Source: a candidate division WOR-3 bacterium
GTDB lineage: Bacteria; Hydrothermota; Tepidihabitantia; SM23-42; JAOAFX01
Direction of reading: 5' to 3'
Assembly (NCBI GenBank): GCA_039802005.1
Contig: JBDRVV010000013.1
Coordinates: forward strand, 1,385-65,384
DNA length: 64,000 bases
Shown here: piece after piece, positions 1 to 36,029 of the stretch
Layout of the letters: each line of letters begins with the position of its first letter
Numbering within the stretch: position 1 is the stretch's first letter
Notes under the pieces: generated by a model
The model's input: the letters and a program-made list of their open reading frames with translations, nothing else
What the model was told of the DNA's origin: nothing
Databases searched by the model: none
Position numbers and translations under genes: made by a program

Positions 1-117
1 GCGGTCTGTGCAAGGATTCGTATTGACCAGGTTGTATCATTCTCCTGGCGCTATCTTGCCCCGCTTGCGGTTTTGCAGTTATTGATTGTGATAATCGTTA
101 AATATTTTGTTTTATGA
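1..117 (+). CDS. 3' end of a NuoH-like (complex I subunit H / MbhM-type) membrane subunit gene, truncated at window start
   Basis: Frame 1 translates to ...RIRIDQVVSFSWRYLAPLAVLQLLIVIIVKYFVL* (TGA at 115-117). This is a hydrophobic C-terminus of the kind seen in NuoH-family proteins, and it is followed by a NuoI-like gene. Confidence 0.4.
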   Translation, partial: AVCARIRIDQVVSFSWRYLAPLAVLQLLIVIIVKYFVL

Positions 118-364
118 ATGGAGAAATGAGAATGCCCGTATTTATTAGAAAGTCAAAATCCGAAATGCGGAATTTAGAAAAATGGTTAAACGTTTTGCGG
201 TTGCGAAATGCGATTCGGTTTCAAAAAACAGCTTCGTTTAACGAACAACGACAAACGATACGCTTTTCGCAACCAACTAACGATAGAGTGTCAGTTGAAT
301 TATTGAAATTTGGAATTTGTTTCGGATTTCGTGCTTCGAATTTCGGATTTGGAGGAGTGGTATT

Positions 365-757
365 ATGAAAATTGCAGCATTCTTACCTGAGTTAGTTCGC
401 CATATTTTCAAAAAACCTGCAACGGTAAAATATCCCTTTGAAAAACTTGAGGTGCCTAAGGGATTCAGGGGGACGCCGATTTTAACACCGGAAAAATGTA
501 TTGTCTGTTATGCCTGCCAGCGCGACTGTCCGGCAGAGGCGATTGAGATAACAACGGTCAATGAGGCAGAAAAGAAATTCAAAATGGTGATTCACAATGA
601 CCGATGTGTCCATTGTGAGCAGTGTGCAGAGAGTTGCCCGGTGGATGCGATAAAATTAAATACCGAGTTTGAACTCGCAGCCTTGAGTCGGTGGGACTTA
701 AAGGAAGAATATATCTACACAAAGGCAAGCCCCAAGGCAAAGACCGAAACGAAATAA
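365..757 (+). CDS. NuoI-like 2x[4Fe-4S] ferredoxin subunit (complex I subunit I / group-4 hydrogenase MbhN-like)
   Basis: Two CxxCxxCxxxCP motifs (CIVCYACQRDCP, CVHCEQCAESCP). GGAGGAG RBS 8 nt upstream of ATG 365. The listed ORF start at 317 is probably too far 5'. Confidence 0.7.
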   Translation: MKIAAFLPELVRHIFKKPATVKYPFEKLEVPKGFRGTPILTPEKCIVCYACQRDCPAEAIEITTVNEAEKKFKMVIHNDRCVHCEQCAESCPVDAIKLNTEFELAALSRWDLKEEYIYTKASPKAKTETK

Positions 758-926
758 TCCTGTAAAAATCTCGTTTTTTTCGTTATACAGTTTAACTGCC
801 CGTATCGGCAATCGTTTTTGTTATACGAAAATAATGCAGGACAAGTCTCTAAAGATTTGCCCTACATTTATGGGATTATAGTATGGTAGGAGCGGTTTCC
901 AACCGCGATAAAATATAGTGGAATCT

Positions 927-3437
927 TTATCTTTTTCTCAACATGTCAATCAAAAATCTTGATGGTAATTGCTGTCGGCCCGAACGGTATTTGGGATATA
1001 AAAGATAGAGCCTTTTCTGGGCACGGGTGACTGCCACATAGCAGAGTCTTCTTTCTTCTTCAAGGTCTCTTGGCTCAGATAAACTCTTGGTCATTGGAAA
1101 TATCTCTTCTACAAGGTCCACGACAAAGACCACAGGAAATTCCATTCCCTTGGCACTGTGCACGGTCATCAATTTCACGGTATCCTTTGCCCAGTCAGCA
1201 AGGTCCATTTCTTGATACAATTTCAAATCACTCAAGAATTTTCCAATCCCTGTTTCAGTATAATTCTGGGCGAAATTTAAAAATTCTTCAAGATTCTCGG
1301 ATTTTAATTTCAATATTCCGACCAATTCATTGATAATGGTGTAGGGTGATAATACATTTAGATTCTGGATATGGTGCTCGACAATCTTTTCCAATTTATT
1401 TTGCACGCTCTTTGTGACTCTGAAAATAGAAACCCCCTGGGTGATAGATTCTTGAGATATTTCAGCAGATTTGCAGATATTTAAAAATTCAAGGTATTCT
1501 ATGATTGACTTGAATTCTTCTTTCTCATAAAATGTTGTGCCACGAATAGTTGTAAAAGGAATACCTGCCTTTGATAAACCTTCTTCATAACTTTTACCGA
1601 GATAATTCATGCGATAGAGAATGACAATATCGCGATAAGCAAAATCCAGTTCTGCAAGGTCTTTTATTTCTTTAACAATATAATCAATTTCGTCGTTTAT
1701 TGAGTCCGCTGCATAGAAAATTACATCACCGGTCTCTAAGTTGGGAATGGCGGTCGTTTCTCGCTGCATCAGGTTATTGGCAATTTCAAGGATTGATTGG
1801 GGAAGGCGGAAACTTCGATTGAGATGGAATATTTTGACATCTTTGAAATCCCGGGCGACCCGATAAATGATTTCTTTGCTTGCGCCCCGCCAGCCATATA
1901 TTGCTTGATCTTCATCACCAGTAAAGAAAAAGTTATCTCTCAATAGCAGGGAGATAAATTTATACTGGGCGGGATTTATATCCTGGAGTTCGTCAACAAA
2001 GATATATTCAAACATACTTTGATAATGTTCCCGTAGATCTTGATATTCTTCTAATAACTTTGTGGCATAAATAATCAGGTCGTCATAATCAAGAATATTG
2101 TTATCTTTCAGGTACTGCTGATATTCTTTATAAATTTTGAGACAGACCTTCTGCCATTCATTTGCCGGTGCAAATTTTTCCGGGGTAATTCCTTTTGCCT
2201 TGAGTATTTCGATCGTTCTGATTATCGCATTCATTTTATACTTTCCGGTTTCAGTCTTCAATAATGGAAATATTTTTCTTGGTTCTTCAATAATGAAATC
2301 TTCACAGATATCAAGCCGTTCGCAATCGCGACGAAGAATTCTCAGGGCAACGGTGTGGAATGTGCCAATCCAAAAGTCATACTGGGGCGACGGAACAAAC
2401 TGGCTCAGTCGTGTCTTTATATCATTTGCTGCTTTATTGGTAAATGCACAGACAAGGATACGCGATGGTGGAATACCTTTCTCAATGAGTTTTAAAATTC
2501 CATAGACAAGGCTTGTAGTCTTACCGCAACCCGCCTGTCCCAGAACAAGTATTTTGCCATCAAGGTTGTTTATTATCTGCTCCTGGTCCGGGGTCAATTT
2601 TAATTCACCTTTCTTCTTTTCAGGGACACCTATCGTTGACTCAATTTTTATACCTTTTGTTTGTTTCTTTAAAATTTTCGTTATTGCTTCTGAATCAGGT
2701 CTTAATTCAGGATTTGTATTAAGGCATTTTATGATAATATCTTCAAGGTATCCAGGTAGATTTGGTCTTACCATACTCGGAATTAACAACTTACTCTTTT
2801 CAATCTTCTTTTTTAAACCATCAAGGTTGTCATCAAGAAAAGGCGGGATGCCAGTGAGTAGTTCATAAAAGATAACACCGATACTCCAGATATCAGACTT
2901 CTCGCTGAATTTTCCCGACCATACCTCGGGTGCCATATAGATTGGCGTGCCGGCAGTTGATGCCGCAATTGAGCCGGTCTTTAAAAAACGGGCAAGTCCG
3001 AAATCAGTAATCTTGATTGTGTTATTTTCGGTTATTAAGATGTTCTCAGGTTTTAAATCACGATGGAGCACACCAGTTTTATGCGCATAACTTATTCCAT
3101 CAAGTATCTGCTGGGCAATATTTAAGAATTCATTTATCTCAATGCCCCCTTCTTTTATGATTTCTCTTAAAGTTTTGCCTTTTATGTATTCCATCACAAG
3201 GACAAACTTATTTTCAATGAAATCTATATTATAAAAACGGACGATATTGGGATGATTTAAAGAGGCAAGGAGTTTTGCCTCATCCTTGAGCATTACGATT
3301 TCTTCTTTGCGCATCCGGGAAATCTTTAAGGCAAATTGAGTTTCAAGGATTGTGTCATAAGCCAGAAAGACATCGCCGAATCGGCCGCCGCCGAGCCATT
3401 CAATGATTTCGTATTTACCGAGTTTTTTTAGAAGCAT
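927..3437 (-). CDS. Fusion protein: N-terminal Hanks-type Ser/Thr protein kinase domain + C-terminal UvrD/Rep-family SF1 DNA helicase
   Basis: Kinase motifs: GxGxxG (LGGGRFGDV), VAIK-like (ALK), HRDLKPEN, DFG, APE. Helicase motifs: GQAGCGKT (I), TGDEDQAIYGWRGA (IV), HSAKGMEFPVVFVVD (V), EEERRLCYVAVTRAQKRLYL (VI). Confidence 0.8.
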   Translation of the reverse strand: MLLKKLGKYEIIEWLGGGRFGDVFLAYDTILETQFALKISRMRKEEIVMLKDEAKLLASLNHPNIVRFYNIDFIENKFVLVMEYIKGKTLREIIKEGGIEINEFLNIAQQILDGISYAHKTGVLHRDLKPENILITENNTIKITDFGLARFLKTGSIAASTAGTPIYMAPEVWSGKFSEKSDIWSIGVIFYELLTGIPPFLDDNLDGLKKKIEKSKLLIPSMVRPNLPGYLEDIIIKCLNTNPELRPDSEAITKILKKQTKGIKIESTIGVPEKKKGELKLTPDQEQIINNLDGKILVLGQAGCGKTTSLVYGILKLIEKGIPPSRILVCAFTNKAANDIKTRLSQFVPSPQYDFWIGTFHTVALRILRRDCERLDICEDFIIEEPRKIFPLLKTETGKYKMNAIIRTIEILKAKGITPEKFAPANEWQKVCLKIYKEYQQYLKDNNILDYDDLIIYATKLLEEYQDLREHYQSMFEYIFVDELQDINPAQYKFISLLLRDNFFFTGDEDQAIYGWRGASKEIIYRVARDFKDVKIFHLNRSFRLPQSILEIANNLMQRETTAIPNLETGDVIFYAADSINDEIDYIVKEIKDLAELDFAYRDIVILYRMNYLGKSYEEGLSKAGIPFTTIRGTTFYEKEEFKSIIEYLEFLNICKSAEISQESITQGVSIFRVTKSVQNKLEKIVEHHIQNLNVLSPYTIINELVGILKLKSENLEEFLNFAQNYTETGIGKFLSDLKLYQEMDLADWAKDTVKLMTVHSAKGMEFPVVFVVDLVEEIFPMTKSLSEPRDLEEERRLCYVAVTRAQKRLYLLYPKYRSGRQQLPSRFLIDMLRKR

Positions 3438-3446
3438 TGGATTTTT

Positions 3447-3619
3447 GCATCAGCAAGCTGATGCACTCCGGGGAAAGGAGCATCAGCAAGCTGATGCACT
3501 CCATAACTAAAATAATACCTGGAGTGCAGTAGCTTGCTACTGCGTTGTAGAAGAATGGAGTGCAGTAGCTTGCTATTGCGTTGCAGAAGAATGGAGTGCA
3601 GTAGCTTGCTACTGCGTGG
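3447..3619. repeat. Tandem array of two different 18-bp palindromes: 2x GCATCAGCAAGCTGATGC (period 33) then 3x GCAGTAGCTTGCTACTGC (period 36)
   Basis: Read directly from the sequence. Each unit is a near-perfect inverted repeat. The array sits 10 nt upstream of the kinase-helicase start codon and abuts the stop of the upstream gene. Confidence 0.9.
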
Positions 3620-3620
3620 T

Positions 3621-4487
3621 TTAACCCGGAAATGCAGAGATATGCACAGGGGCATTTTTATAAAAAACCATCTGACCGACTAACTTTCTACCTTTAAATC
3701 CTTTATGCCCGGATTTACTATCAAAACCAGTCTCAATTATAGTTTGTTTTAGATTTTTAAAAAAGTTTTCCACATGAGGTTTGGTCCCTGTACTCCGCTG
3801 GTATTCAATCGCATCCAGTGCATAACTGCGCAGCAATTTCTTTTCAAATTTATGATATATCTCAGAAGAAGCAAATATATCACAACCAAGTATAGTATGT
3901 CCAGCAACACCCAAAAATCCGACCGTATTATGATTTAACCCATCAAATCCCTCAACATAACGTTCAATCTCATCGTTAAGATTATCAAATATTTCATGCA
4001 TAGATGAAGTTTTTGATTTTGTCCTGGTGACCGTCAATTTCCTATCAATTTCTTTCCATACTTGATGCTGAGTATCAGTTTTTTTACTATCCGAAGATGC
4101 AAGAATGGAGCGAATTCTCGGATACGAACAATAGCCCGTTCTGAATCCACCAATCTCTTCCCATCTTTTCTCTTCGGCACATATCACCGGTATTTGACTG
4201 CGCGAATGTGGTTGAGCAACGAATGATTGCGCAATTATACGGTTCTGCATAGAACCGGTTATTTCTTCACCATCAATCATCAGCACGGGAGAATCACCCT
4301 TGTTGTCAAATATTATTTTGTTTACATCAGGTGTGGCAAGTTCACAAAAACTTGCTATACCCGTAGCGATAAGATTATCAATGGTATCAATTTGTGCGTT
4401 TCCATTATTTCCATCATTTTTTACTGGATAGAGCATCAAATTTCTTAAAAATATTGGTTCACCGAGATTTAATTTCGTGAAATCCAT
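3621..4487 (-). CDS. Hypothetical protein (possibly ARPP-1/DUF6569-like; contains a PVLMIDGEEITGSMQNR motif)
   Basis: ORF with a GGAGG RBS 7 nt upstream of the ATG (MDFTKL...). Family assignment is from memory only. Confidence 0.55.
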   Translation of the reverse strand: MDFTKLNLGEPIFLRNLMLYPVKNDGNNGNAQIDTIDNLIATGIASFCELATPDVNKIIFDNKGDSPVLMIDGEEITGSMQNRIIAQSFVAQPHSRSQIPVICAEEKRWEEIGGFRTGYCSYPRIRSILASSDSKKTDTQHQVWKEIDRKLTVTRTKSKTSSMHEIFDNLNDEIERYVEGFDGLNHNTVGFLGVAGHTILGCDIFASSEIYHKFEKKLLRSYALDAIEYQRSTGTKPHVENFFKNLKQTIIETGFDSKSGHKGFKGRKLVGQMVFYKNAPVHISAFPG

Positions 4488-4495
4488 AAGACCTC

Positions 4496-4948
4496 CTATG
4501 GAGCATAAAAAACCCCAAAATGCCAGGTGGTGGACCAATCTGTATACCAGGTCCACTTATGATTATAGGCGCGGACGCGCCAGAAATAAAAGCCATTTCT
4601 TGAAACTGTATATGCTGTGGAACATACTTCCGCATTTACCAGTGGAGCATAGGGTAAAGCGGTTGTATCATTCGCAACTTGCAATTGGTAGTATTCTACA
4701 TCTTCAACAACGCTCCACTTTAATTTAACATCATGAGGATATGGTGTTGCAAACCAGATGGAAGTATCATTTCTTGGACTAATCAACTGTGGAGCAGAAG
4801 GTGGTGGATAAAGAGAATCAAAGGGCGGCTCGTATTCATTGGGATTTTTGCAACTGATATTAAAATTAAGGCAAATTATCATAATGGGAAGCAAAATACA
4901 ACCCCCCATAATGATTTTAATTGCGGGAAATTTGTTTTTAATACCCAT
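4496..4948 (-). CDS. Small secreted/lipoprotein, hypothetical
   Basis: N-terminal hydrophobic signal ending in a Cys lipobox (ICLNFNISC). Confidence 0.5.
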   Translation of the reverse strand: MGIKNKFPAIKIIMGGCILLPIMIICLNFNISCKNPNEYEPPFDSLYPPPSAPQLISPRNDTSIWFATPYPHDVKLKWSVVEDVEYYQLQVANDTTALPYAPLVNAEVCSTAYTVSRNGFYFWRVRAYNHKWTWYTDWSTTWHFGVFYAP

Positions 4949-4957
4949 ATTTTTCTC

Positions 4958-6358
4958 CTATCTTTTTATTTTTAGCACATAAAGATTATTTCTCATTAGA
5001 TTATTCAATCTATAACCCCCAATCACTGCTGTTGAACCATCTACCAACAAAAAACGGCCATATTCATAAAGGTAATCTCCATAAGTTTTTTCTTTAATCA
5101 GATTACCTGTTTCATCAATACATAGAAAGTACAAGTCACTACCATTTATTCCTGCAGTGCCTACAATTAAATATTTACCGTCAGGACATTGCTCAACGGC
5201 ATAACCGTTGTCGGTATAATTGGTGCCATAAGTTTTTTCCCAGACTTTATTGCCGTTGTTGTCTAACTTTAAGATATAAACATTGCCGTTGCCACCGACA
5301 ACCATAAAACCATTATCACTGGTTTGTATCACCCTATTACCCACATCACTCCCTGCTCCACCATAATTTTTTATCCATTGTGCTACTCCGTTAGCATCAG
5401 TTTTAATTACATAGATATCACCATTACTTGCAAAAGAATAGGTATATCCGGCAATGATAAAGCCGTTATCATTACATTTTTTAACAGAATTCCCGCAATC
5501 TATATCCAGCCCGCCATATGTTCTTGTCCAGAGCGTATCTCCGTTAATATTAGTTCTGATTAACAACACATCATTATTCTGATAAGAGCCTGCCATACCT
5601 GTTATTATATATCCATCTTGCAATATATCTACATCATACCCGTTATCAGTTAGTGAAAATGTAAAAACTTTTTGCCACATAGAGTTGCCCTGATTATCAG
5701 TCTTTATTAAATAAACATCTCCATTGTCATCACCGAAGGATTTAGTTGTTCCTGTTATTATGAAACCTCCGTCAGTCGTGGTTTTAACTGAATATCCATA
5801 ATCATCTAAACCACCGCCATATGTTTTTTCCCAGACAATTCCGCCAGTGGTATCAATCTTTATTAAATACACATCATATCCACCTGCACCGTAAGACTTT
5901 GTTGCGCCAACAATCACATAACAATTATCCAGGGATTTAGTAATTGAATAACCATAGTCATCATCATAACCACCGTATTCTTTGGTCCAGAACAGGTCGG
6001 TTCCGATGGTCAGAATATGTGGTTCAGACCATTCTGATTCAAGATTTTTTGTATCCTTTGCCTTTGCCCTTATTGCGTAACTGCCTTGCTCTCCATAAAA
6101 ATGTATCATTGATACTGTATCACCAGAACCAACCAATGGACTCCAGTTTGATTCATTTCCATCACCCCAATCAAATTTTATTGCAATACTATCTCCATCA
6201 GGGTCCGAACTCCAGGTAAAGAAAGTATAATTATCAACAACACCAGAATCAGGGCCACTTGGAATTGATGGGGTCTCAGGCGGTCTGTTGGATTTACAGG
6301 TGGTTAACATTAAAGACTCTATTAGAAATAAAATTGCTAATAACCTAAAAAACTTCAT
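4958..6358 (-). CDS. Lipoprotein with PKD domain and a repeated beta-propeller-like module
   Basis: Signal peptide plus Cys (LMLTTC). WGDG PKD motif. About six repeats of the form YGxS..T.DGG.I.G.T.S.G....D.YLIKTD.NG..W.KTYGG. Confidence 0.6.
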   Translation of the reverse strand: MKFFRLLAILFLIESLMLTTCKSNRPPETPSIPSGPDSGVVDNYTFFTWSSDPDGDSIAIKFDWGDGNESNWSPLVGSGDTVSMIHFYGEQGSYAIRAKAKDTKNLESEWSEPHILTIGTDLFWTKEYGGYDDDYGYSITKSLDNCYVIVGATKSYGAGGYDVYLIKIDTTGGIVWEKTYGGGLDDYGYSVKTTTDGGFIITGTTKSFGDDNGDVYLIKTDNQGNSMWQKVFTFSLTDNGYDVDILQDGYIITGMAGSYQNNDVLLIRTNINGDTLWTRTYGGLDIDCGNSVKKCNDNGFIIAGYTYSFASNGDIYVIKTDANGVAQWIKNYGGAGSDVGNRVIQTSDNGFMVVGGNGNVYILKLDNNGNKVWEKTYGTNYTDNGYAVEQCPDGKYLIVGTAGINGSDLYFLCIDETGNLIKEKTYGDYLYEYGRFLLVDGSTAVIGGYRLNNLMRNNLYVLKIKR

Positions 6359-10631: not shown

Positions 10632-12272
10632 TTAATTGCTTACAATAACAATTGTAGTATTCAAACTATAGTTTCCTTTTTCCAACAGTACCAGATATAC
10701 GCCTGAATTCAAATCCCTAAATGAGTAGTTTAATGCATATCTTCCTGCATTCTTAAACCCATTTTCAATTATCCTTACCAGCCTGCCATCAATGGAATAG
10801 ACTTTTAAAGAAATATGCCCTGCTTCAGGAATAGTATAAGTAATCACCGCATTATCCCGCACCGGATTGGGGGAAATATTTAAAGAAAATTTTTGTGGTT
10901 TTTCCTGTTTCTGCTCTTGGATACCCGTAATCGCCTGCCTGCCCCAGTACCACCTTGCCGGATGAGAATACTGCCAGCCCTTCCAGCACATCCATATCGG
11001 GTCTAAATCCGCAACCATATCCTGACCAAAGACATAAAAGAATTGATTATTCTGGGTATCAATCCGCTTGGCAATTTGCGCCAGCCCATGCCGATAACCA
11101 AAACTGCCTGTAATATTACGCGGTGTATGCCAGTTCAACCCACCATCCGTTGAATAATTATAATACAGATTCCAAAACGCCAGTGAATCCTGTCCCGCTC
11201 CTGCCTGGGAATGCCAGAGACCAATGAGATAATCTCCACCCGTAGCAATCGTGGGATAGAAGTTCCTATTTAAGCCAGTAGATATTTCTCTACATACCTG
11301 CCCTGAACCCGGTGAGACATAGATTTTCCCAGTCGTTGGATAATTGCCAGCAATATAATCCTGATAATCAATATTATCAAATATCAATTTGGGCTCACCA
11401 TTGTCCATAACCACGGCCTGGGTCCAGAAGACCAAATTGGAATCAAAGGGCTCAGGCCAGACCATATTGTAAACCTGTTCTGATGACCAGTTTATGCCAT
11501 CGGTTGTCGTGCGGTAGTAGATATTCAAGAGTGTATCATAGTAAAAGATATAGGCAATACCATTATTAATATCAAATCCCCAGTATCTACGATAATCAGG
11601 ATTGATATAACCACCCGCCAGATGGGTCGTGAGATTACAATTGTAGGTGCGATAGATAAGACGGATGCGCCCTGAAAGATCATTTTCAACCATTCCAATA
11701 AAGATAAGATTACCGTTGGGTAGTTGTTTGCCAACATTCCGCATTGTGTTTACAATACCTGGTCCTAAATCAGTTGGCGCATCCCAGTATGAGGACCACC
11801 AGCCACCGGTTTCAAATTGCGCAACCAATCTTGAAGAAGCTACATATCCGCAATTATAAGAGATATGTGGTCCACTTCCCGCGGTATTAAATCCCGAGGC
11901 AATTGAATTGGGATAATGACACGCACCAAATTGTCCAGTATATACGCCAAAGTCAGTTAGTGATAGAGTAAAGAAATTATCGGTCTGTGAAACACTTAAA
12001 TTTAATCCCGATAGGTAACTTCTACACACAAACTGTAGTCCGGCAACCATTGGATTATATGACAAACATTCTTGTATTTGAGTCCACATTGACCAGGCTG
12101 TACCCGAGTCTATTACAAAAAAATCATTTGACATAATCACAGGTGTATGTGGTTGATTGTATAATCCTGGTGCTTCTGAAGACATCGGCTCATGACTCAC
12201 AATATCTATCGGCAAGGTTATTGCTATAATTATATTAAACACAATCAGAAGCAAGAAGACAAGTCTCATCAT
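10632..12272 (-). CDS. BNR-repeat (sialidase-like beta-propeller) surface protein with T9SS C-terminal domain, paralog A
   Basis: Signal peptide. BNR motifs (STDGGLNWH, TTDGINWS). T9SS CTD-like tail. AAGGAGG RBS. The central ~0.9 kb of DNA is nearly identical to paralog B. Confidence 0.7.
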   Translation of the reverse strand: MMRLVFLLLIVFNIIIAITLPIDIVSHEPMSSEAPGLYNQPHTPVIMSNDFFVIDSGTAWSMWTQIQECLSYNPMVAGLQFVCRSYLSGLNLSVSQTDNFFTLSLTDFGVYTGQFGACHYPNSIASGFNTAGSGPHISYNCGYVASSRLVAQFETGGWWSSYWDAPTDLGPGIVNTMRNVGKQLPNGNLIFIGMVENDLSGRIRLIYRTYNCNLTTHLAGGYINPDYRRYWGFDINNGIAYIFYYDTLLNIYYRTTTDGINWSSEQVYNMVWPEPFDSNLVFWTQAVVMDNGEPKLIFDNIDYQDYIAGNYPTTGKIYVSPGSGQVCREISTGLNRNFYPTIATGGDYLIGLWHSQAGAGQDSLAFWNLYYNYSTDGGLNWHTPRNITGSFGYRHGLAQIAKRIDTQNNQFFYVFGQDMVADLDPIWMCWKGWQYSHPARWYWGRQAITGIQEQKQEKPQKFSLNISPNPVRDNAVITYTIPEAGHISLKVYSIDGRLVRIIENGFKNAGRYALNYSFRDLNSGVYLVLLEKGNYSLNTTIVIVSN

Positions 12273-12294
12273 TCCTCCTTAATTACACAATAAT

Positions 12295-12322
12295 ATTATA
12301 CTCAAAAAAAAAAAATAGTCAA
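12295..12322 (-). promoter_or_regulatory. Sigma70-like promoter of paralog A: TTGACT-16 nt-TATAAT, with a 12-nt poly-T (A12 on + strand, 12304-12315) filling the spacer
   Basis: Read directly: the reverse complement gives TTGACTaTTTTTTTTTTTTgagTATAAT, followed by AAGGAGG and ATG. Confidence 0.6.
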
Positions 12323-12388
12323 GGGTATAATGCAATAGGGTGGGAATTCTTCCCACCCTTGCAATGAAACCCGCACAGAAGATTATAA

Positions 12389-12502
12389 AATCGGGAAGCA
12401 AGCGCTTCCACAACAACCCGGATAGCATATCATGCTAATTTCAACTTCGGTTTCTCTATTTTTATCTTCCATACAGGTTATCGGTTGGATCAGGATTTCC
12501 AT
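12389..12502 (-). CDS. Unannotated 37-aa Cys-rich peptide MEILIQPITCMEDKNRETEVEISMICYPGCCGSACFPIL; candidate RiPP precursor
   Basis: The ATG lies 1 nt after the TAA stop of the radical SAM gene, with an AGGAGGTG RBS inside that gene's 3' end. Five Cys residues cluster toward the C-terminus. A hairpin (GGGTGGGAAgaaTTCCCACCC, 12346-12366) lies downstream. Confidence 0.5.
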
Positions 12503-12503
12503 C

Positions 12504-13880
12504 TTAATCACCTCCTTTCATCACTTGCCCTTTATCCAGGGCAGTCTTTTCAAGATATTTATTTAATAATCCCCAGAAATGGTCGCATATTGCAGATTTC
12601 AACTCACTTTCAGTTTTGCATTTCTTTCTTATAACCTGGCATCCCCCCATACATAATGGCAATAGTTTACAGGATTTGCAGGGTTCTGTATCACAGGGAT
12701 GCTTTTCAAAAAAGTAGTTTATATACTGCTGATTGGGGATGAATTTACCTTCTTTTATATAACCAACTTCATCTCCGATGTCTAAATGAGAGGTACATTT
12801 ATAAACGCGGCTGTTTGGACCGACTGTGTATATACCAAAGACTTGTGCTCCACAATAAAAACTTCTTACCGGCAGCGCATTGGGAAATACTGTGTCAATA
12901 TCTTCTTCTTTGTCACTTGTTATCTTTCTAATTGCTTCATATATTGCGTTATACTCGTGGGCAGAAAATCCTTTTTCTTGAGGTGCGAAATCTGCACATT
13001 TTTGAGTATAATCTCTTAATTTCCCGGGGCGTACTACAGTATTCTTACCATATAACCAATCTGTTTTTCTTAAGAATTCAAGTACAGCATTTGCGTTATC
13101 TCGGTCAATATTTAATCTAATATCAACATGGTCAAAATATTTTTTTGCGATGATTATTGCCTCTTTTATTCTTCCAAATGTTGGTTTACGGTTTTTAAGT
13201 GGCCGGCGTCGGTTATGAACTTCCTCGGGTCCATCAAGGGTTATCTGAATCAATTTTACATTGGAATTTATTAATTCTCGGGCTATTTCTTCGGTTAAAA
13301 GATATCCATTAGTAACAATATTCGCCTCATATCTAATTTTATTAGCAGAAGCAATATTTATTAATTCAGAGCTCAATTGTTTGATTCTATCATATGCCAG
13401 TAATGGTTCGCCACCATACCAAGAAATTGATATTCCTTCTGGTTTTACCCGTTGTATCTCCGAATTTATGAACTTTAATACATTGTTGCAGTCTTGGATA
13501 GTCATTGTTTCATTAATTTCGCTCTCAAAGCAATAAATACAACGAAAATTACATGCCCGAGTAGGGAGCATCGTGATAGAAAGATTTCGCCGTTCAAATG
13601 CACCTCTGAAGGCACGGAATTTTACAAATTCAATTTCATTTACATTATCTTCTACAATAAAACCACATTCAAACATTTTTGAAAAAAGATCGTCCCTGTT
13701 AGTTCTAAGAGTAAGGTTATTAGGATTTTCTAATAAGTTTGAGACATCACTCAGATCGCAGTTTCGCACAAAAGCCAGTGCTCCAGTATAAGTGTTGTAT
13801 AAAAGATTAACCTTGCCGTCTGTACTTTTGTACCAATAATTATAGATTGATTGTTTATAATTTTTACTTGTCTTCATTGT
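12504..13880 (-). CDS. Radical SAM / SPASM-domain peptide-modifying enzyme with an N-terminal RRE(PqqD)-like domain
   Basis: CNFRCIYC (CxxxCxxC) radical SAM motif. C-terminal Cys-rich SPASM region (CGAQ...CTSH...CDTEPCKSCKLLPLCMGGCQ). An N-terminal ~100-aa region precedes the core. The ATG at 13880 is preferred over the GTG at 13994. Confidence 0.75.
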   Translation of the reverse strand, partial: TMKTSKNYKQSIYNYWYKSTDGKVNLLYNTYTGALAFVRNCDLSDVSNLLENPNNLTLRTNRDDLFSKMFECGFIVEDNVNEIEFVKFRAFRGAFERRNLSITMLPTRACNFRCIYCFESEINETMTIQDCNNVLKFINSEIQRVKPEGISISWYGGEPLLAYDRIKQLSSELINIASANKIRYEANIVTNGYLLTEEIARELINSNVKLIQITLDGPEEVHNRRRPLKNRKPTFGRIKEAIIIAKKYFDHVDIRLNIDRDNANAVLEFLRKTDWLYGKNTVVRPGKLRDYTQKCADFAPQEKGFSAHEYNAIYEAIRKITSDKEEDIDTVFPNALPVRSFYCGAQVFGIYTVGPNSRVYKCTSHLDIGDEVGYIKEGKFIPNQQYINYFFEKHPCDTEPCKSCKLLPLCMGGCQVIRKKCKTESELKSAICDHFWGLLNKYLEKTALDKGQVMKGGD

Positions 13881-14161
13881 TCGTCCCTGTTGCTTACATA
13901 AGTTTTTAATGCAAATTTCGTGCCCAGACAAAAATGTTGAAATTTCAGAAGTTTTAATTTTAACTTTTGGGAAAAAGTGTGAAAATTTATACACTATTTA
14001 TGGACACCATCAAAAACTCACGAAATTTGATAGATTTGTGAAATACAAAAGTGTATACTATTTAAACTCATTTTACACTATTTTTACACCTTTGATTTAT
14101 TTCTATACCCAGGCAATCATAATTGATCATTGCTGGAACACTTAATTCGTTCCGGGTTATG

Positions 14162-15802
14162 CTATTTTAAAAATGCAAAGAGACTGCTGGTGTTCCACTT
14201 TCCATTTTCAAGCATAAGCACATATATCCCGGCATTTAAATCATTGAATGAGCAGTCTAATTTATATCTTCCTGCATTCTTAAACCCATTTTCAATTATC
14301 CTTACCAGCCTGCCATCAATGGAATAGACTTTTAAAGAAATATGCCCTGCTTCAGGAATAGTATAAGTAATCACCGCATTATCCCGCACCGGATTGGGGG
14401 AAATATTTAAAGAAAATTTTTGTGGTTTTTCCTGTTTCTGCTCTTGGATACCCGTAATCGCCTGCCTGCCCCAGTACCACCTTGCCGGATGAGAATACTG
14501 CCAGCCCTTCCAGCACATCCATATCGGGTCTAAATCCGCAACCATATCCTGACCAAAGACATAAAAGAATTGATTATTCTGGGTATCAATCCGCTTGGCA
14601 ATTTGCGCCAGCCCATGCCGATAACCAAAACTGCCTGTAATATTACGCGGTGTATGCCAGGTCAATCCTCCATCCGTTGAATAATTATAATACAGATTCC
14701 AAAACGCCAGTGAATCCTGTCCCGCTCCTGCCTGGGAATGCCAGAGACCAATGAGATAATCTCCACCCGTAGCAATCGTGGGATAGAAGTTCCTATTTAA
14801 GCCAGTAGATATTTCTCTACATACCTGCCCTGAACCCGGTGAGACATAGATTTTCCCAGTCATTGGATAATTGCCAGCAATATAATCCTGATAATCAATA
14901 TTATCAAATATCAATTTGGGCTCACCATTGTCCATTACCACTGCTTGGGTCCAGAAGACTAAATTGGAATCAAAGGGCTCGGGCCAGACCATATTGTAAA
15001 CCTGTTCTGATGACCAGTTTATCCCATCAGTGGTAGTGCGATAGTAGATATTCAAGAGTGTATCGTAGTAAAAGACATAGGCAATACCATTATTAATATC
15101 AAATCCCCAGTATCTACGATAATCAGGATTGATATAGCCACCAGCAAGCTGGGTCGTGAGATTGCAATTATAGGTGCGATAGATAATTTTTCTATCATCA
15201 GAATAGTTTTCTATAGTAACCGCAATAAATAATATGTTTCCATTCGGAAATTGCTTACCGATATTCCACCAGGCTTTATTTATTCCTGGTCCGAGGTCAA
15301 CCGGTGGATCCCAATATGAAGACCACCAACCACCAGTTTCAAATATTCCTACCATTCTGGAATATGTTAGATAACCACAAGAAAGAGAGACATGAGGTCC
15401 AGAACCTGCAATATCAAAACCTGAGGCAATGGCAGATGGATATATAAACCCACCAAATTGACCTGTGTATACGCCGATATCAGTTAATGAAAAAGAAAAG
15501 AGGTTATCTGTTTGGGAAACATTCAAATATAAGCCGGTTCCAAATTCATGGCAAACAAATAATAGACTACCGACTAAAGCATTGTATGCCAGACATTCAT
15601 GACTTTGTGTCCAAAGAGAGTAGGCGTAAACAGAGGAGTCAACAGGTGAAAAGGAATTTGAGTTAACTATCGGAGTGTGTGATAGATTGTAAGTTTTATG
15701 CTCTTGATTTAATAGCACTAGCTCAGGTGGATTAATAGGGATACTAATCGTCACTGCCCTACTAATTTGAATGAGAATAAGAAAGAAACAAATATTTCTC
15801 AT
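14162..15802 (-). CDS. BNR-repeat surface protein with T9SS C-terminal domain, paralog B
   Basis: Same architecture as paralog A. The N-terminal ~170 aa and the last ~35 aa are diverged; the core is near-identical at the DNA level. Confidence 0.7.
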   Translation of the reverse strand: MRNICFFLILIQISRAVTISIPINPPELVLLNQEHKTYNLSHTPIVNSNSFSPVDSSVYAYSLWTQSHECLAYNALVGSLLFVCHEFGTGLYLNVSQTDNLFSFSLTDIGVYTGQFGGFIYPSAIASGFDIAGSGPHVSLSCGYLTYSRMVGIFETGGWWSSYWDPPVDLGPGINKAWWNIGKQFPNGNILFIAVTIENYSDDRKIIYRTYNCNLTTQLAGGYINPDYRRYWGFDINNGIAYVFYYDTLLNIYYRTTTDGINWSSEQVYNMVWPEPFDSNLVFWTQAVVMDNGEPKLIFDNIDYQDYIAGNYPMTGKIYVSPGSGQVCREISTGLNRNFYPTIATGGDYLIGLWHSQAGAGQDSLAFWNLYYNYSTDGGLTWHTPRNITGSFGYRHGLAQIAKRIDTQNNQFFYVFGQDMVADLDPIWMCWKGWQYSHPARWYWGRQAITGIQEQKQEKPQKFSLNISPNPVRDNAVITYTIPEAGHISLKVYSIDGRLVRIIENGFKNAGRYKLDCSFNDLNAGIYVLMLENGKWNTSSLFAFLK

Positions 15803-32930: not shown

Positions 32931-35900
32931 TTATTTTAGCATTATTGCCTTTTCCACGATTTTCTCATTGTCGGTCTCGAGTTGGACAAAATAGACACCC
33001 GCAGGTAGTTTACGACCTTCGTGGTCTTTTCCATTCCAGAGAATGAATGCGTTTTGACTGAGCTCGTTGTAAGTCCATTCTCTCACAAGCCTGCCTGTTG
33101 CGTCAAATATCTTGATTATTGCTGAAGACTGATTTTCTGGTACTACATAGTGTATGCGTAATTTCCCAGTAAATGGATTTTGGGAGAAAGTGAGTCGCGA
33201 TATATCTGTTTTATTGCCAGACTCAGAGATTCCGACATAACTTGAAAGATTTCCGACTTCCCAATCAAGCAATGCGGGATTGTTCGGCGATTTTGTCAGA
33301 CGATAGAAAAGCCCTTTTAATCTTATCGTGTTATATGTCACAGTGTCAGTCATCAGGTTCAATTTGACCGTATCAACCGCATTGTGGCTGAATTTTCCGG
33401 TTGAATTACCAGGAATGATGGAGTTAGGAACTAATTGCCAGGTAGAACCGGTGTAATATTCAACCTGAATACCTATGGAATCGCCACCTGTTGCCTTGCG
33501 CCAGATAATATCGCCCCAGCGTGAACGGGCATAGGTTTTTGAAAGCTCGGAATAGACGACTGGTGGGCTATATAGGACACCTGAATTGTTCTGGTAAGTG
33601 TAAGAATAGGAGAGAATCACATTATCGGTTCCGCATGCCCAGCCCCAGTGAGATGATGTGGTACTATCACTGAAGAACCACTCAAATTGGACCGAATCGC
33701 AAGGTAATTGGGAAGTTAGGTCTATGTCGGCAGTCCCGTTAACACTGGTGGTATATTCAGCAATATTTGTCCAGCTTGTCCAGGTGCCACCGGTTCTTTT
33801 GCGGAATTTTACACGGAGTTTTTCACCGGTCTCATAGACTCTAAATCCATATCCATAACGAATTCTTAAGTTTGCTGCAGTCGGAGGAACATAGACCTTC
33901 GGTGAAATCAGTTCCTCATTATAGTTGATCACACCGCTGCCCGCATCATCATCTGAATAGTATGCATAGGCAGTGCCATAGTTGGGTGGAGTGTAAGAAC
34001 CCAAATCGGTCGTTGTACCTGTTGTCCAACGGTATCCATCATTATTGCCATCAACCCAGGTCCAGCCTGCAGGCATTCCGGATTCAAAATTAGCAGTAAG
34101 GAGGGTATCTTCTACATAACCTACTGGCACAAGCACTACACTATCACCCTGAACCTGTGTGCCATTGAATGTACAACCTAAGAATTGTGCATAGGTTGTC
34201 TGGAACCAGGAACAAGTTCCAGATGGTATATCAGTCTTTATTGTGAAAGACCTTCGTGCAGTAGGTGCAGACCACATTCCACTTGTGGTTGAATCAGCGG
34301 CTTTAACTTTCCACCAATAAGTAGTGTTGTTGGTTAGAGAAACAGGCAGGGTATAGGTGATAGTTGCACCACTTGGATATAGTCCGGTTGTTATACTATC
34401 CTGGTTTGTAAATGCGGTATCAGTTGACCAGTAGATTCTGTATTTTACCATATCATTCTGTGGGTCAGTAGTTGTGAGTTTAAATATCGGGTTCAATGTT
34501 GCAAATTTTGCATAGTTGAATGGAGCGATGATTGTAGGTGTAAATGGTGTGCCGGGTAATGGTGTGGCATTGACGGCAGCGAGTGCATCAATTCTACCCG
34601 CACCAAAATCATTATCCTTTCCTGAAGGACCAAGGTCAACAGCAGTAACCTGGAGAATACTATCTATCTCACGGCGGGAAAGATATGGATTCTTCTGAAG
34701 CATCAATGCAACAGTTCCTGCAACATGTGGTGTTGCCATTGAAGTTCCATTCCAGCCGTCAAGATAGCCAGTATTATTATTATAGGCACAGGATTTGATA
34801 TTCACACCCGGTGCTGAAACATCGGGCTTGGTTAATCCTGGTGGGTAGGGATAGTCATTGTAACCAGTGACTGTATCCCACCTAACAGGCCCAGGTGAAG
34901 AGAATGAAGCTATAGCATCGTTTATATCAGTTGCACCAATACTTATTACATTTGATTGGGCACCTGTTGCTCCATTCTGTGGATGGCGCCAAGGTGAAGG
35001 AACACTTCCCGGGCATCTCAGGGCATAAGGTGGAAGGTCAAAACCTCTTTCATTACCGGCAGCAACGATCATCACGATCCCTGCGGCACCGACATTATTG
35101 CAGGCGGTGCGCCACATTGCAACCCTTGGTGACCAGGCATATCGCCAGCCGAGGGACATTGTTATCAAATCACCACCATGGGTTGGTGAAAGTGGTGGTG
35201 AGACAACAAACTGCATCGCCTGCCAGACTTGATTCTCGGCTGTACTATCAGCAACCGTCCTCACACGACAGCATAACATCTGGGCATCTGGTGCTACACC
35301 ACACTGGGAACCAGCAGTCCCATCGGATGCAACAGAGCCTGCACAATGGGTACCGTGTCCCTGGGCATCCATCGGGTCGTTATTATTCAACTCAAAATTC
35401 CATCCATGATTTGGGTAATTCGGGTCGGTCCAGATATGGTCAGCAAGGTCAACATGGTTGTAATTCACACCGGTATCAATGATACCGACAACAATACCTT
35501 GACCCGTATAGCCCAGTGCCCATACTGCTGGAGCATTGATTTTGCTCACACCCCAGGCAATCTCTCTTTCTTGTGATGTCTTGTCTGCAGGCGCAGGGAA
35601 TTGCTCTGGCTTTTCTATATCAATGGGCTTCAGGTCATAATCAATATAGAAAATATCCCGATTATTATCCAATTCTGCAATCACATCCTTTGTTGCTTCA
35701 CAATAGATCGCATTTACAATCCAGATTGACACAATATTTTTAACCTTATTCTGTTTTTCCATCCTTGCGAGATATTCAAGAACAGGTTTCTGGTTTTCCA
35801 GCGAATAAGCACGCAGTATCTCGGCAGTCCTTGCCCTTCTTTCAGGTTTTGGTAATCCTTCAACTGCCCTCGTTAGATCATTCACATCCATCTGTTTTTT

Positions 35901-36029
35901 GAAGACAATGTCTATAGGAATAAAATCCGATGAACGTGCATTGGTAGTAACATTTTTAAGTTCCGGGCTTATCAACGCAAAACCTGGGATTATCAAAACA
36001 AACAATAAAAGTATGTTAATGAGTTTCAT
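32931..36029 (-). CDS. Subtilisin-like S8 serine peptidase, large secreted, with T9SS C-terminal domain
   Basis: Asp/His/Ser triad motifs (GIIDTGVN, HGTHCAGS, GTSMATPHVAG), signal peptide, T9SS CTD tail. Confidence 0.85.
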   Translation of the reverse strand: MKLINILLLFVLIIPGFALISPELKNVTTNARSSDFIPIDIVFKKQMDVNDLTRAVEGLPKPERRARTAEILRAYSLENQKPVLEYLARMEKQNKVKNIVSIWIVNAIYCEATKDVIAELDNNRDIFYIDYDLKPIDIEKPEQFPAPADKTSQEREIAWGVSKINAPAVWALGYTGQGIVVGIIDTGVNYNHVDLADHIWTDPNYPNHGWNFELNNNDPMDAQGHGTHCAGSVASDGTAGSQCGVAPDAQMLCCRVRTVADSTAENQVWQAMQFVVSPPLSPTHGGDLITMSLGWRYAWSPRVAMWRTACNNVGAAGIVMIVAAGNERGFDLPPYALRCPGSVPSPWRHPQNGATGAQSNVISIGATDINDAIASFSSPGPVRWDTVTGYNDYPYPPGLTKPDVSAPGVNIKSCAYNNNTGYLDGWNGTSMATPHVAGTVALMLQKNPYLSRREIDSILQVTAVDLGPSGKDNDFGAGRIDALAAVNATPLPGTPFTPTIIAPFNYAKFATLNPIFKLTTTDPQNDMVKYRIYWSTDTAFTNQDSITTGLYPSGATITYTLPVSLTNNTTYWWKVKAADSTTSGMWSAPTARRSFTIKTDIPSGTCSWFQTTYAQFLGCTFNGTQVQGDSVVLVPVGYVEDTLLTANFESGMPAGWTWVDGNNDGYRWTTGTTTDLGSYTPPNYGTAYAYYSDDDAGSGVINYNEELISPKVYVPPTAANLRIRYGYGFRVYETGEKLRVKFRKRTGGTWTSWTNIAEYTTSVNGTADIDLTSQLPCDSVQFEWFFSDSTTSSHWGWACGTDNVILSYSYTYQNNSGVLYSPPVVYSELSKTYARSRWGDIIWRKATGGDSIGIQVEYYTGSTWQLVPNSIIPGNSTGKFSHNAVDTVKLNLMTDTVTYNTIRLKGLFYRLTKSPNNPALLDWEVGNLSSYVGISESGNKTDISRLTFSQNPFTGKLRIHYVVPENQSSAIIKIFDATGRLVREWTYNELSQNAFILWNGKDHEGRKLPAGVYFVQLETDNEKIVEKAIMLK

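Follow-up and report, generated by a model that had tools for sequence, protein, structure and literature searches.

What would a bacterium gain by tethering a signalling kinase to a DNA motor? The question is raised by a gene near the beginning of the window analyzed here, a 64-kb stretch of contig JBDRVV010000013.1 from a candidate division WOR-3 bacterium, whose 836-aa product joins a Hanks-type serine/threonine kinase to a UvrD/PcrA-type helicase and which follows a gene of the ARPP-1 family (Pfam PF20208/DUF6569). Our analyses suggest, with a probability that we put at roughly one in two, that the two genes form a chromosomal DNA-linked signaling or repair system with the helicase serving to target the attached kinase and to switch it on. 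An earlier note on this DNA, made from the letters alone, had described the fusion, a repeat-laden 5' region, and a neighboring gene as having the look of a nucleic acid-sensing or defense-type module; its description of the protein stands, as set out below, but the defense reading was not supported. The coordinates of all features are collected in the table in the last section.

The kinase-helicase fusion

The intact kinase, the UvrD-type helicase, and the short linker that the earlier note had seen in one protein were all confirmed by Pfam and by an alignment of 20 family members sharing 48-84% identity with the window fusion. Pfam assigns residues 9-252 to Pkinase (E 3.9e-60, 203.9 bits against a cut-off of 31.7), and all hallmarks of a Hanks kinase are present, namely the glycine-rich loop (G-loop), the VAIK lysine, the alphaC glutamate, and the HRD, DFG, and APE motifs. 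The residues invariant in the alignment are G16-G21 of the G-loop, K38, E53, HRDLKPEN (125-132), DFG (145-147), T164, and P170-E171, and the A-G-T164-P segment of the activation loop is likewise invariant. PknB and StkP are the nearest solved structures to the kinase half, which in Foldseek superposes on M. tuberculosis PknB with a template modeling (TM) score of 0.83-0.91 (normalized to PknB) and an rmsd of 1.4-3 Å. The kinase is also the most conserved part of the module, its identity to the window protein exceeding those of ARPP-1 and of the helicase in 24 of 24 loci. The fusion thus resembles the PknB/Stk1/StkP kinases in its complete catalytic core and in the order of its parts, with the kinase N-terminal and a "sensor" module C-terminal, but it has neither the transmembrane segment nor the PASTA repeats of the PASTA kinases, and its match to the Stk1/PknB equivalog NF033483 is limited to residues 7-251 and scores 223.5 bits against a cut-off of 450. 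An AlphaFold2 model of the window fusion, built from a 38-sequence alignment, has a mean predicted local distance difference test (pLDDT) score of 83.6 and a whole-protein predicted TM-score (pTM) of 0.58, with disorder in the activation loop (149-161) and in the linker (261-277). Because the pLDDT of the linker is 32-44 and the pTM 0.58, the two halves are not predicted to hold a fixed mutual orientation, and the picture given by the model is one of two well folded enzymes joined by a flexible tether of ~25 residues, which is short, variable, and predicted to be disordered.

The helicase half matches UvrD-helicase at residues 281-532 (E 2.1e-63) and UvrD_C at residues 684-815 (E 1.2e-44) in Pfam. 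Motifs I through VI, which the earlier note had listed as complete, are indeed all present, and the invariant positions of the family alignment fall in motifs Q (Q285), I (G303-G305-K306-T307), Ia, Ib, II (D482, E483, Q485, D486), III (T506-A519), IV (F543, R544), V (T758-G764), and VI (E794-R805). Most catalytic residues of both halves are still invariant after the addition of 25 deeper relatives, down to 29% identity. The helicase shares with PcrA, UvrD, and Rep all nine motifs of superfamily 1A (SF1A), the 1A/1B/2A/2B layout, and 33-43% sequence identity; it matches the pcrA model TIGR01073 with E 3.5e-117, and its AlphaFold2 model aligns with DNA-bound UvrD/PcrA complexes at TM-scores of 0.72-0.75 over ~620 columns (Foldseek), so that the four-subdomain fold is predicted to be retained, with 2B present though shorter. 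Judged by sequence, this half derives from PcrA/UvrD. It differs from these proteins in carrying an N-terminal Hanks kinase, in a trimmed 2B, and in the lack of the C-terminal Tudor-like domain by which PcrA/UvrD binds RNA polymerase. Its alignment with G. stearothermophilus PcrA (1pjr) covers PcrA residues 12-402 and 508-639 only; across 2B, 59 fusion residues (653-711) stand against 105 PcrA residues (403-507), a shortening of ~45, and no counterpart was found of the last ~85 PcrA residues, the alignment stopping at about residue 639 of 724. Likewise, in tblastn with a 753-aa PcrA query, no family member matched past residue 657. The 2B-equivalent region is the least conserved part of the fusion family in the 20-member alignment and is modeled as helices across residues 640-742 (pLDDT 60-88). 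Because 2B is trimmed and the tail lost, the fusion falls far below the NCBIfam equivalog cut-offs for pcrA (TIGR01073, 392.6 versus 911.2), uvrD (TIGR01075, 325.2 versus 1144), and rep (TIGR01074, 326.5 versus 951); together with the finding by Foldseek that no PDB chain spans both halves, this bears out the earlier statement that the architecture is not that of a standard repair helicase.

Two side observations concern the helicase coding region. The Walker A segment of the window protein (residues 300-307, nt ~2517-2540) reads G-Q-A-G-C-G-K-T, and its cysteine C304 is conserved to at least 90% within the WOR-3 clade, whereas the wider family has A-G-T-G-K-T as its consensus; a cysteine at this place in the P-loop could be redox-sensitive. 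A scan of window positions 1-5000 against Rfam gave no match near the gathering score. A weak match on the minus strand at 990-1089 to RF03531 (33.8 bits versus a gathering score of 65.2, E 0.01), a Clostridioides difficile small RNA described as lying inside a helicase gene, overlaps the region encoding motif VI and most likely reflects conserved helicase coding sequence, not an RNA gene.

The fusion is shared by a large set of uncultivated bacteria. Among 5.8 billion proteins, a first search found both the kinase and the UvrD Pfam domains in more than 115 full-length clusters (831-859 aa, 48-99% identity), the named ones being mostly from candidate division WOR-3. HMMER against 1.84 billion representatives at 50% identity added ~35 further full-length fusion clusters (830-913 aa, 34-55% identity), the rest of that list being ordinary PcrA/UvrD proteins with 37-43% identity to the helicase half, and a third search seeded with the deepest member yielded 26 additional clusters in a deep clade. 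In all, more than 150 clusters carry the same continuous open reading frame (ORF) of 830-913 aa, at 99% down to 34% identity, in assemblies from NCBI, JGI, ENA, and Logan that include complete chromosomes of 1.9-2.8 Mb, and the N-terminus MLLKKLGKYEI and the position of the linker are kept across the 20-member alignment. The source labels comprise WOR-3, Candidatus (Ca.) Stahlbacteria (Stahliibacteriota), TA06, Ca. Hydrothermales (Caldifarciminota), and Thermosulfidibacteraceae (metagenome-assembled genomes, MAGs, labeled Thermosulfidibacterota), as well as single MAGs labeled "Aquificota" and "Synergistetes"; the named entries are all MAGs, and no source name indicates a cultured strain. On these sequence comparisons, the fusion is real and old. 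A helicase-only protein of 657 aa (P0321) was considered as a possible unfused form and rejected; it is encoded among PGK, GAPDH, and thioredoxin genes, with neither ARPP-1 nor a kinase. The family is not a characterized housekeeping family, its database names ("UvrD-helicase domain-containing protein," "DNA 3'-5' helicase") being automatic only, and within the searchable literature no kinase-UvrD fusion or ARPP-1/kinase-helicase operon was found described. The domains are known, and the fusion architecture and the operon appear to be undescribed.

ARPP-1, the upstream partner

The gene upstream of the fusion, which the earlier note had proposed for checking as a conserved partner in homologs, encodes a bona fide ARPP-1 (Pfam E 1.5e-57, 195.6 bits versus a cut-off of 27). 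Its 288 residues equal the lengths of its homologs, and a longer GTG start at 4556 does not fit. The protein keeps the family-wide invariants G73, E74, Q81, R83, C103, E105, R108, W109, and H282; C103 and Q81, the invariant cysteine and glutamine that it has in common with the ARPPs of published neighborhoods (Iyer, Burroughs, Anantharaman, Aravind 2022, PMC9503650), are invariant in both the fusion-linked and the unlinked ARPP-1 subfamilies. An AlphaFold2 model (pLDDT 80) is beta-rich, with the beta-meander ends described in PMC9503650, and Foldseek returned no solved structural relative of this model.

The linkage of the two genes is tight. Among 12 independent contexts, 10 (the window, L001, L002, L004, L006, L008, L009, L010, L094, and L176) have ARPP-1 directly upstream of the fusion on the same strand; such loci reach down to 35% fusion identity, and in L006, L010, L094, and L176 the pairing survives a complete change of flanking genes. 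A scan of metagenomes with an ARPP-1 alignment as its seed gave 80 loci, and where ARPP-1 was at least 45% identical to that of the window, the kinase-helicase gene lay directly downstream in 34 of 35 evaluable loci, the sole exception having an IS200/RAYT-type transposase in between just before the contig end. At 32-40% identity, the fusion was present in 5 of 8 loci, with RelA/SpoT or CdaA downstream in the other 3, and at 29% identity or below it accompanied ARPP-1 in none. The median spacing between the two genes is 24 nt; in 39 of 52 loci it does not exceed 60 nt, and in several the genes overlap. Over 24 loci, ARPP-1, kinase, and helicase change in step in their identity to the window proteins (Spearman 0.93-0.94). 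We conclude that ARPP-1 is a true partner of the fusion and that the two genes form an operon with ARPP-1 first and the fusion second. This obligate-looking partner further sets the fusion apart from PcrA, UvrD, and Rep, and to our knowledge, no ARPP-1 operon partner of PcrA/UvrD is known.

The published two-gene neighborhoods place ARPP with ARG systems, HIRAN, WYL, or a deacetylase (PMC9503650). The pairing with HIRAN is similar in that the fusion, too, would engage DNA 3' ends or single-stranded DNA. On the other hand, a kinase or UvrD partner is not mentioned in PMC9503650 ("UvrD" occurs 0 times), the fusion-linked ARPP-1 proteins, at least 32% identical to that of the window, make up a subfamily of their own, and the setting in the window is the core chromosome, not a variable conflict locus.

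Several loci show ARPP-1 in other company. Fusion-less ARPP-1 genes at 35-38% identity have RelA/SpoT, a (p)ppGpp synthetase/hydrolase, or CdaA, a c-di-AMP synthase, directly downstream and sometimes overlapping, and a NUDIX hydrolase gene is next downstream of a more distant ARPP-1 gene; loci with such nucleotide-handling neighbors are L141:444-3699, L142:79-2814, L137:4992-6663, and L146:4968-6723. In a Thermosulfidibacteraceae MAG (L176:4490-8598), where ARPP-1 overlaps the fusion gene by 13 nt, ARPP-1 is itself preceded, at a distance of 10 nt, by a gene for an RNase T/DEDD-type 3'-5' exonuclease, which in this lineage may add a third component that acts on 3' ends of DNA. The invariant TSSMH segment of ARPP-1 was considered as a target of the kinase and dropped; S158 and T160 are conserved in subfamilies that have no kinase partner and are therefore probably catalytic or structural.

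A proposed role and its alternatives

Bacterial Hanks kinases carry the kinase at the N-terminus and the sensor at the C-terminus, and kinases of the PknB type are activated by proximity-driven trans-autophosphorylation. From the same domain order in the fusion, we infer that the helicase would be the DNA-reading targeting and sensor module of the kinase and, from the mode of activation, that loading on DNA would switch the kinase on locally. Fusion molecules would load on single-stranded DNA or on single-stranded/double-stranded junctions (gaps, stalled forks, 3' tails), where the tethered kinases would be concentrated and would trans-autophosphorylate on the conserved S/T-x-x-G-T164-P segment of the activation loop. 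Once active, the kinase could phosphorylate proteins on site: its own helicase half, ARPP-1, or factors of repair and replication. The lesion would be processed or marked by ARPP-1, which is predicted to be a cysteine-dependent enzyme and for which sugar, ADP-ribose, or abasic moieties have been proposed as targets. In this way, the module would serve genome maintenance and DNA-damage signaling and may stand in for the UvrD/PcrA of the lineage. Sensing of nucleic acids by the fusion, as first suggested in the earlier note, is plausible. That DNA can activate a Hanks kinase whose targets are recombination proteins has a precedent in B. subtilis YabT, which depends on single-stranded DNA and phosphorylates RecA; in several bacteria, moreover, PcrA/UvrD are known to be phosphorylated (review PMC4754617). 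Unlike the C-terminal modules of YabT and other Hanks kinases, that of the fusion is predicted to be a DNA motor powered by ATP and not a domain that only binds. ARPP, for its part, has been predicted to be an enzyme with a conserved cysteine and glutamine that may attach covalently to sugars in the manner of SRAP, and another of its partners is the HIRAN domain, which binds 3' DNA ends (PMC9503650); both the predicted action on sugar moieties and the HIRAN pairing fit a role at damaged or adducted single-stranded DNA. A bolder form of the proposal, speculative and in our view rather doubtful, would make the module the counterpart, in logic, of the DNA-damage checkpoint kinases of eukaryotes. 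An SF1 motor would switch on a tethered kinase at single-stranded DNA and stalled forks, ARPP-1 would mark DNA adducts of the sugar, ADP-ribose, or abasic kind or remove them, and the whole would be a core pathway of genome surveillance, fixed throughout the lineage and possibly replacing canonical UvrD.

Some points weigh against a DNA-linked signaling or repair system of this kind. All mechanistic steps of the model are themselves inferred. The fusions at L092 (a Hydrothermales genome) and L093 (a distant 963-aa relative) have no adjacent ARPP-1, so the partner is not obligatory in cis. Judged by the sequence, the missing Tudor tail and the short 2B argue against canonical roles in nucleotide excision repair (NER) or in transcription-coupled processes. 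In mycobacterial UvrD1, removal of 2B is reported to unmask helicase activity and to abolish NER in vivo (PMC13646824), and in light of that report, the trimmed 2B of the fusion would point to altered regulation rather than to a classical NER role. Furthermore, ARPP was first described in predicted conflict (ADP-ribose) systems (PMC9503650), and hidden Markov models (HMMs) of known defense proteins match the fusion, as discussed below.

The proximity of the helicase to bona fide PcrA/UvrD and the truncation of the regulatory 2B would also be accommodated if the fusion were simply the housekeeping PcrA/UvrD of the lineage, with a kinase that autoregulates the motor only in cis, for example in place of control by a full 2B or by dimerization, without outward signaling, the linkage to ARPP-1 then being a matter of operon history. 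The core genomic context is in keeping with this, as is the Hydrothermales fusion at L092, which sits without ARPP-1 among housekeeping genes. However, the higher conservation of the kinase than of the helicase in every comparison suggests constraints beyond a cis-regulatory role, the tight and co-diverging linkage to ARPP-1 despite wholly different flanks is hard to call an accident, and the Tudor tail of a PcrA/UvrD that engages RNA polymerase is missing. We therefore regard the plain housekeeping explanation as unlikely.

The defense reading would make the module a chromosomally fixed system against phages or mobile elements. Foreign DNA ends or intermediates of replication would be detected by the helicase, host or phage proteins would be phosphorylated en masse by the kinase as an abortive-infection effector, as by Stk2/PD-T4-6-type kinases, and ARPP-1 would be a co-effector or would counter ADP-ribosylation by the phage. 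The original description of ARPP in predicted ADP-ribose conflict systems speaks for it, and so do the PADLOC HMMs for GajB, RTasHel, mad6, and PD-T4-6, each of which matches one half of the fusion, both halves being covered among them, at E 1e-65 to 1e-88. Gabija GajB, DRT RTasHel, MADS mad6, PD-T4-6, and BREX PglW do share with the fusion the concept of linking an effector to an ATPase that tracks along DNA. Yet these matches are at the level of domains and are explained by generic kinase and UvrD homology; none of the systems unites kinase and helicase in one protein, and the NCBIfam scores lie far below the cut-offs for MAD6 (202.5 versus 460) and PglW (101.5 versus 990). Their defining partners, GajA, reverse transcriptase, and the MADS methylation and BREX genes, are absent. 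In Gabija, the UvrD-like GajB is encoded beside GajA, an OLD-family ATPase/Toprim nuclease; no GajA-like gene was found in the window or in the 12 homologous contexts, and no methyltransferase or BREX genes were found nearby. No defense gene, PP2C phosphatase, or FHA protein was found in the 64-kb window.

The genomic setting points the same way. The flanks in the window and at homologous loci are core or envelope genes, including ferredoxin with an NADH-dehydrogenase/hydrogenase operon, TonB-dependent receptor, cargo of the type IX secretion system (T9SS), PBP1, AccD, Asd, citrate synthase, isocitrate dehydrogenase, S-adenosylmethionine synthetase, AdoHcyase, and EF-Ts/S9, the window neighbors of the fusion being ARPP-1, a lipoprotein, and ferredoxin. 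When 72,556 plasmid and 50,697 phage records were searched by tblastn, no place covered at least 80% of the fusion protein, the matches there being helicase-only. As judged from clusters and sampled loci, the pair is nearly universal and syntenic in the lineage, neither patchy nor mobile, and the fusion is strongly conserved and co-diverges with ARPP-1 without variable accessory modules. The one context with an accessory or toxin-antitoxin flavor, which would favor defense, is that of the most distant fusion (L093:3607-6981, 963 aa, 34% identity, without ARPP-1), whose neighbors are small genes with weak TumE-like, CopG-antitoxin-like, and DUF433 matches. Taken together, the vertical inheritance, the strong conservation, the core-gene setting, and the absence of the fusion from phage and plasmid records and of the defining partners leave a defense function improbable. 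We conclude that ARPP-1 and the fusion are passed on vertically as a module of the core chromosome in WOR-3 and allied uncultivated lineages and do not make up a mobile island. Finally, an artificial junction of adjacent kinase and helicase genes, through a frameshift in sequencing or a chimeric assembly, for which nothing was found beyond three half-length entries (P0120, 649 aa; P0254, 546 aa; P0257, 577 aa) that are truncated gene calls (the P0257 cluster includes an 831-aa member), is excluded by the conserved continuous ORF in independent assemblies and by the conserved N-terminus and linker position.

Repeats, neighboring genes, and wider meaning

The repeats that the earlier note had seen 5' of the fusion are real, but they are incidental to the module. 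An 18-nt motif that contains a palindrome occurs five times in the 183-nt gap between ARPP-1 and the fusion, where chance would give 0.04 copies, and nowhere else in the 64-kb window; three AGCAAGCTACTGCACTCC copies lie on the minus strand with a 36-nt period, and two further copies are inverted. As RNA, this region has a strong fold (-78.5 kcal/mol, z -6.8), and a scan for promoters and terminators gave results no better than shuffles. The close relatives L008 and L009 (84-89% identity) have gaps of 32 and 55 nt without these repeats, and L104, L112, and L118 carry in the same gap a gene for a 180-aa transposase of the type associated with repetitive extragenic palindromes (REP), or RAYT (NF047646, 101-106 bits versus a cut-off of 80), with near-identical palindromes flanking it, the arrangement of a REPtron; the window and L110 have palindromes without the RAYT gene. 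Because the repeats are absent from close relatives and a RAYT occupies the same spot elsewhere, they are not part of the module, and we conclude that they are probably a strain-specific REP/RAYT-type insertion at a recurrent site. A different repeat family occupies the same gap at L100:5843-6005 and L102:5864-6040, in direct and then inverted copies of the ATCAGG/GATATCAGG type that could form a long hairpin.

The lipoprotein gene upstream of ARPP-1 was considered as a third component and rejected. Its product has a conserved core (YYQLQ...FWRVRAY...W) and homologs at L001:12150-12587, L002:6158-7126 (a tandem duplicate), L004:6700-7128, L008:4650-5093, and L009:4570-5070, but it is a synteny neighbor in WOR-3 only, absent from L006 and L010 and located elsewhere in L001; since deeper lineages lack it, it is probably unrelated in function. 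Farther away, window positions 10632-15802 and 32931-36029 encode several large secreted proteins with C-terminal T9SS sorting domains (Por_Secre_tail), among them an S8 subtilase of 1032 aa that has a cleaved-adhesin domain and lies in a slightly GC-richer stretch at 30-36 kb; these are typical envelope and degradative content, unrelated to the fusion module.

Coordinates of the features discussed (window positions unless a locus is named; a point marks a feature without strand)
Feature	Position	Strand	Basis
Fusion gene, Hanks kinase-UvrD/PcrA-type helicase, 836 aa	927..3437	-	ATG start; stop codon 927-929; ORF and Pfam
Kinase domain, aa 9-252, PknB-like	2682..3413	-	Pfam, family alignment, Foldseek
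Variable tether between kinase and helicase, aa 253-280	2598..2681	-	Poorly conserved alignment columns; low pLDDT at 261-277
SF1A helicase core, aa 281-836; motifs Q and I-VI intact, 2B shortened, no Tudor tail	930..2597	-	Pfam, alignment, PcrA comparison, Foldseek
2B-equivalent region, aa ~640-745, predicted all-helical, poorly conserved	1203..1520	-	PcrA alignment, family alignment, AlphaFold2
ARPP-1 (PF20208/DUF6569), 288 aa, conserved upstream partner of the fusion	3621..4487	-	Pfam, invariant residues, linkage statistics
Lipoprotein, ~145 aa, upstream of ARPP-1	4496-4948	-	Signal peptide and lipobox Cys; no Pfam match
Cluster of five REP-like palindromes	3452..3610	.	Motif counts, RNA fold, comparison with related loci
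Recurrent REP/RAYT insertions in the gap	L104:2127-2884, L112:3060-4267, L118:5855-6694, L117:6109-6651, L110:1575-1729		

Bacterial Hanks kinases are mostly known as membrane sensors, and UvrD/PcrA mostly as stand-alone repair motors regulated by 2B, dimerization, and partner proteins. Although the hosts are uncultured, the fusion and ARPP-1 are soluble proteins of moderate size with clear catalytic-dead mutants and are thus open to biochemical testing. If the proposed role is true, ARPP-1, so far an orphan family, would gain its first chromosomal DNA-handling partner, and the linkage would sharpen the published guess that ARPP acts on the sugar moieties of nucleic acids; the fusion itself would be a new bacterial coupling of DNA transactions to protein phosphorylation, by a protein conserved throughout its lineage.

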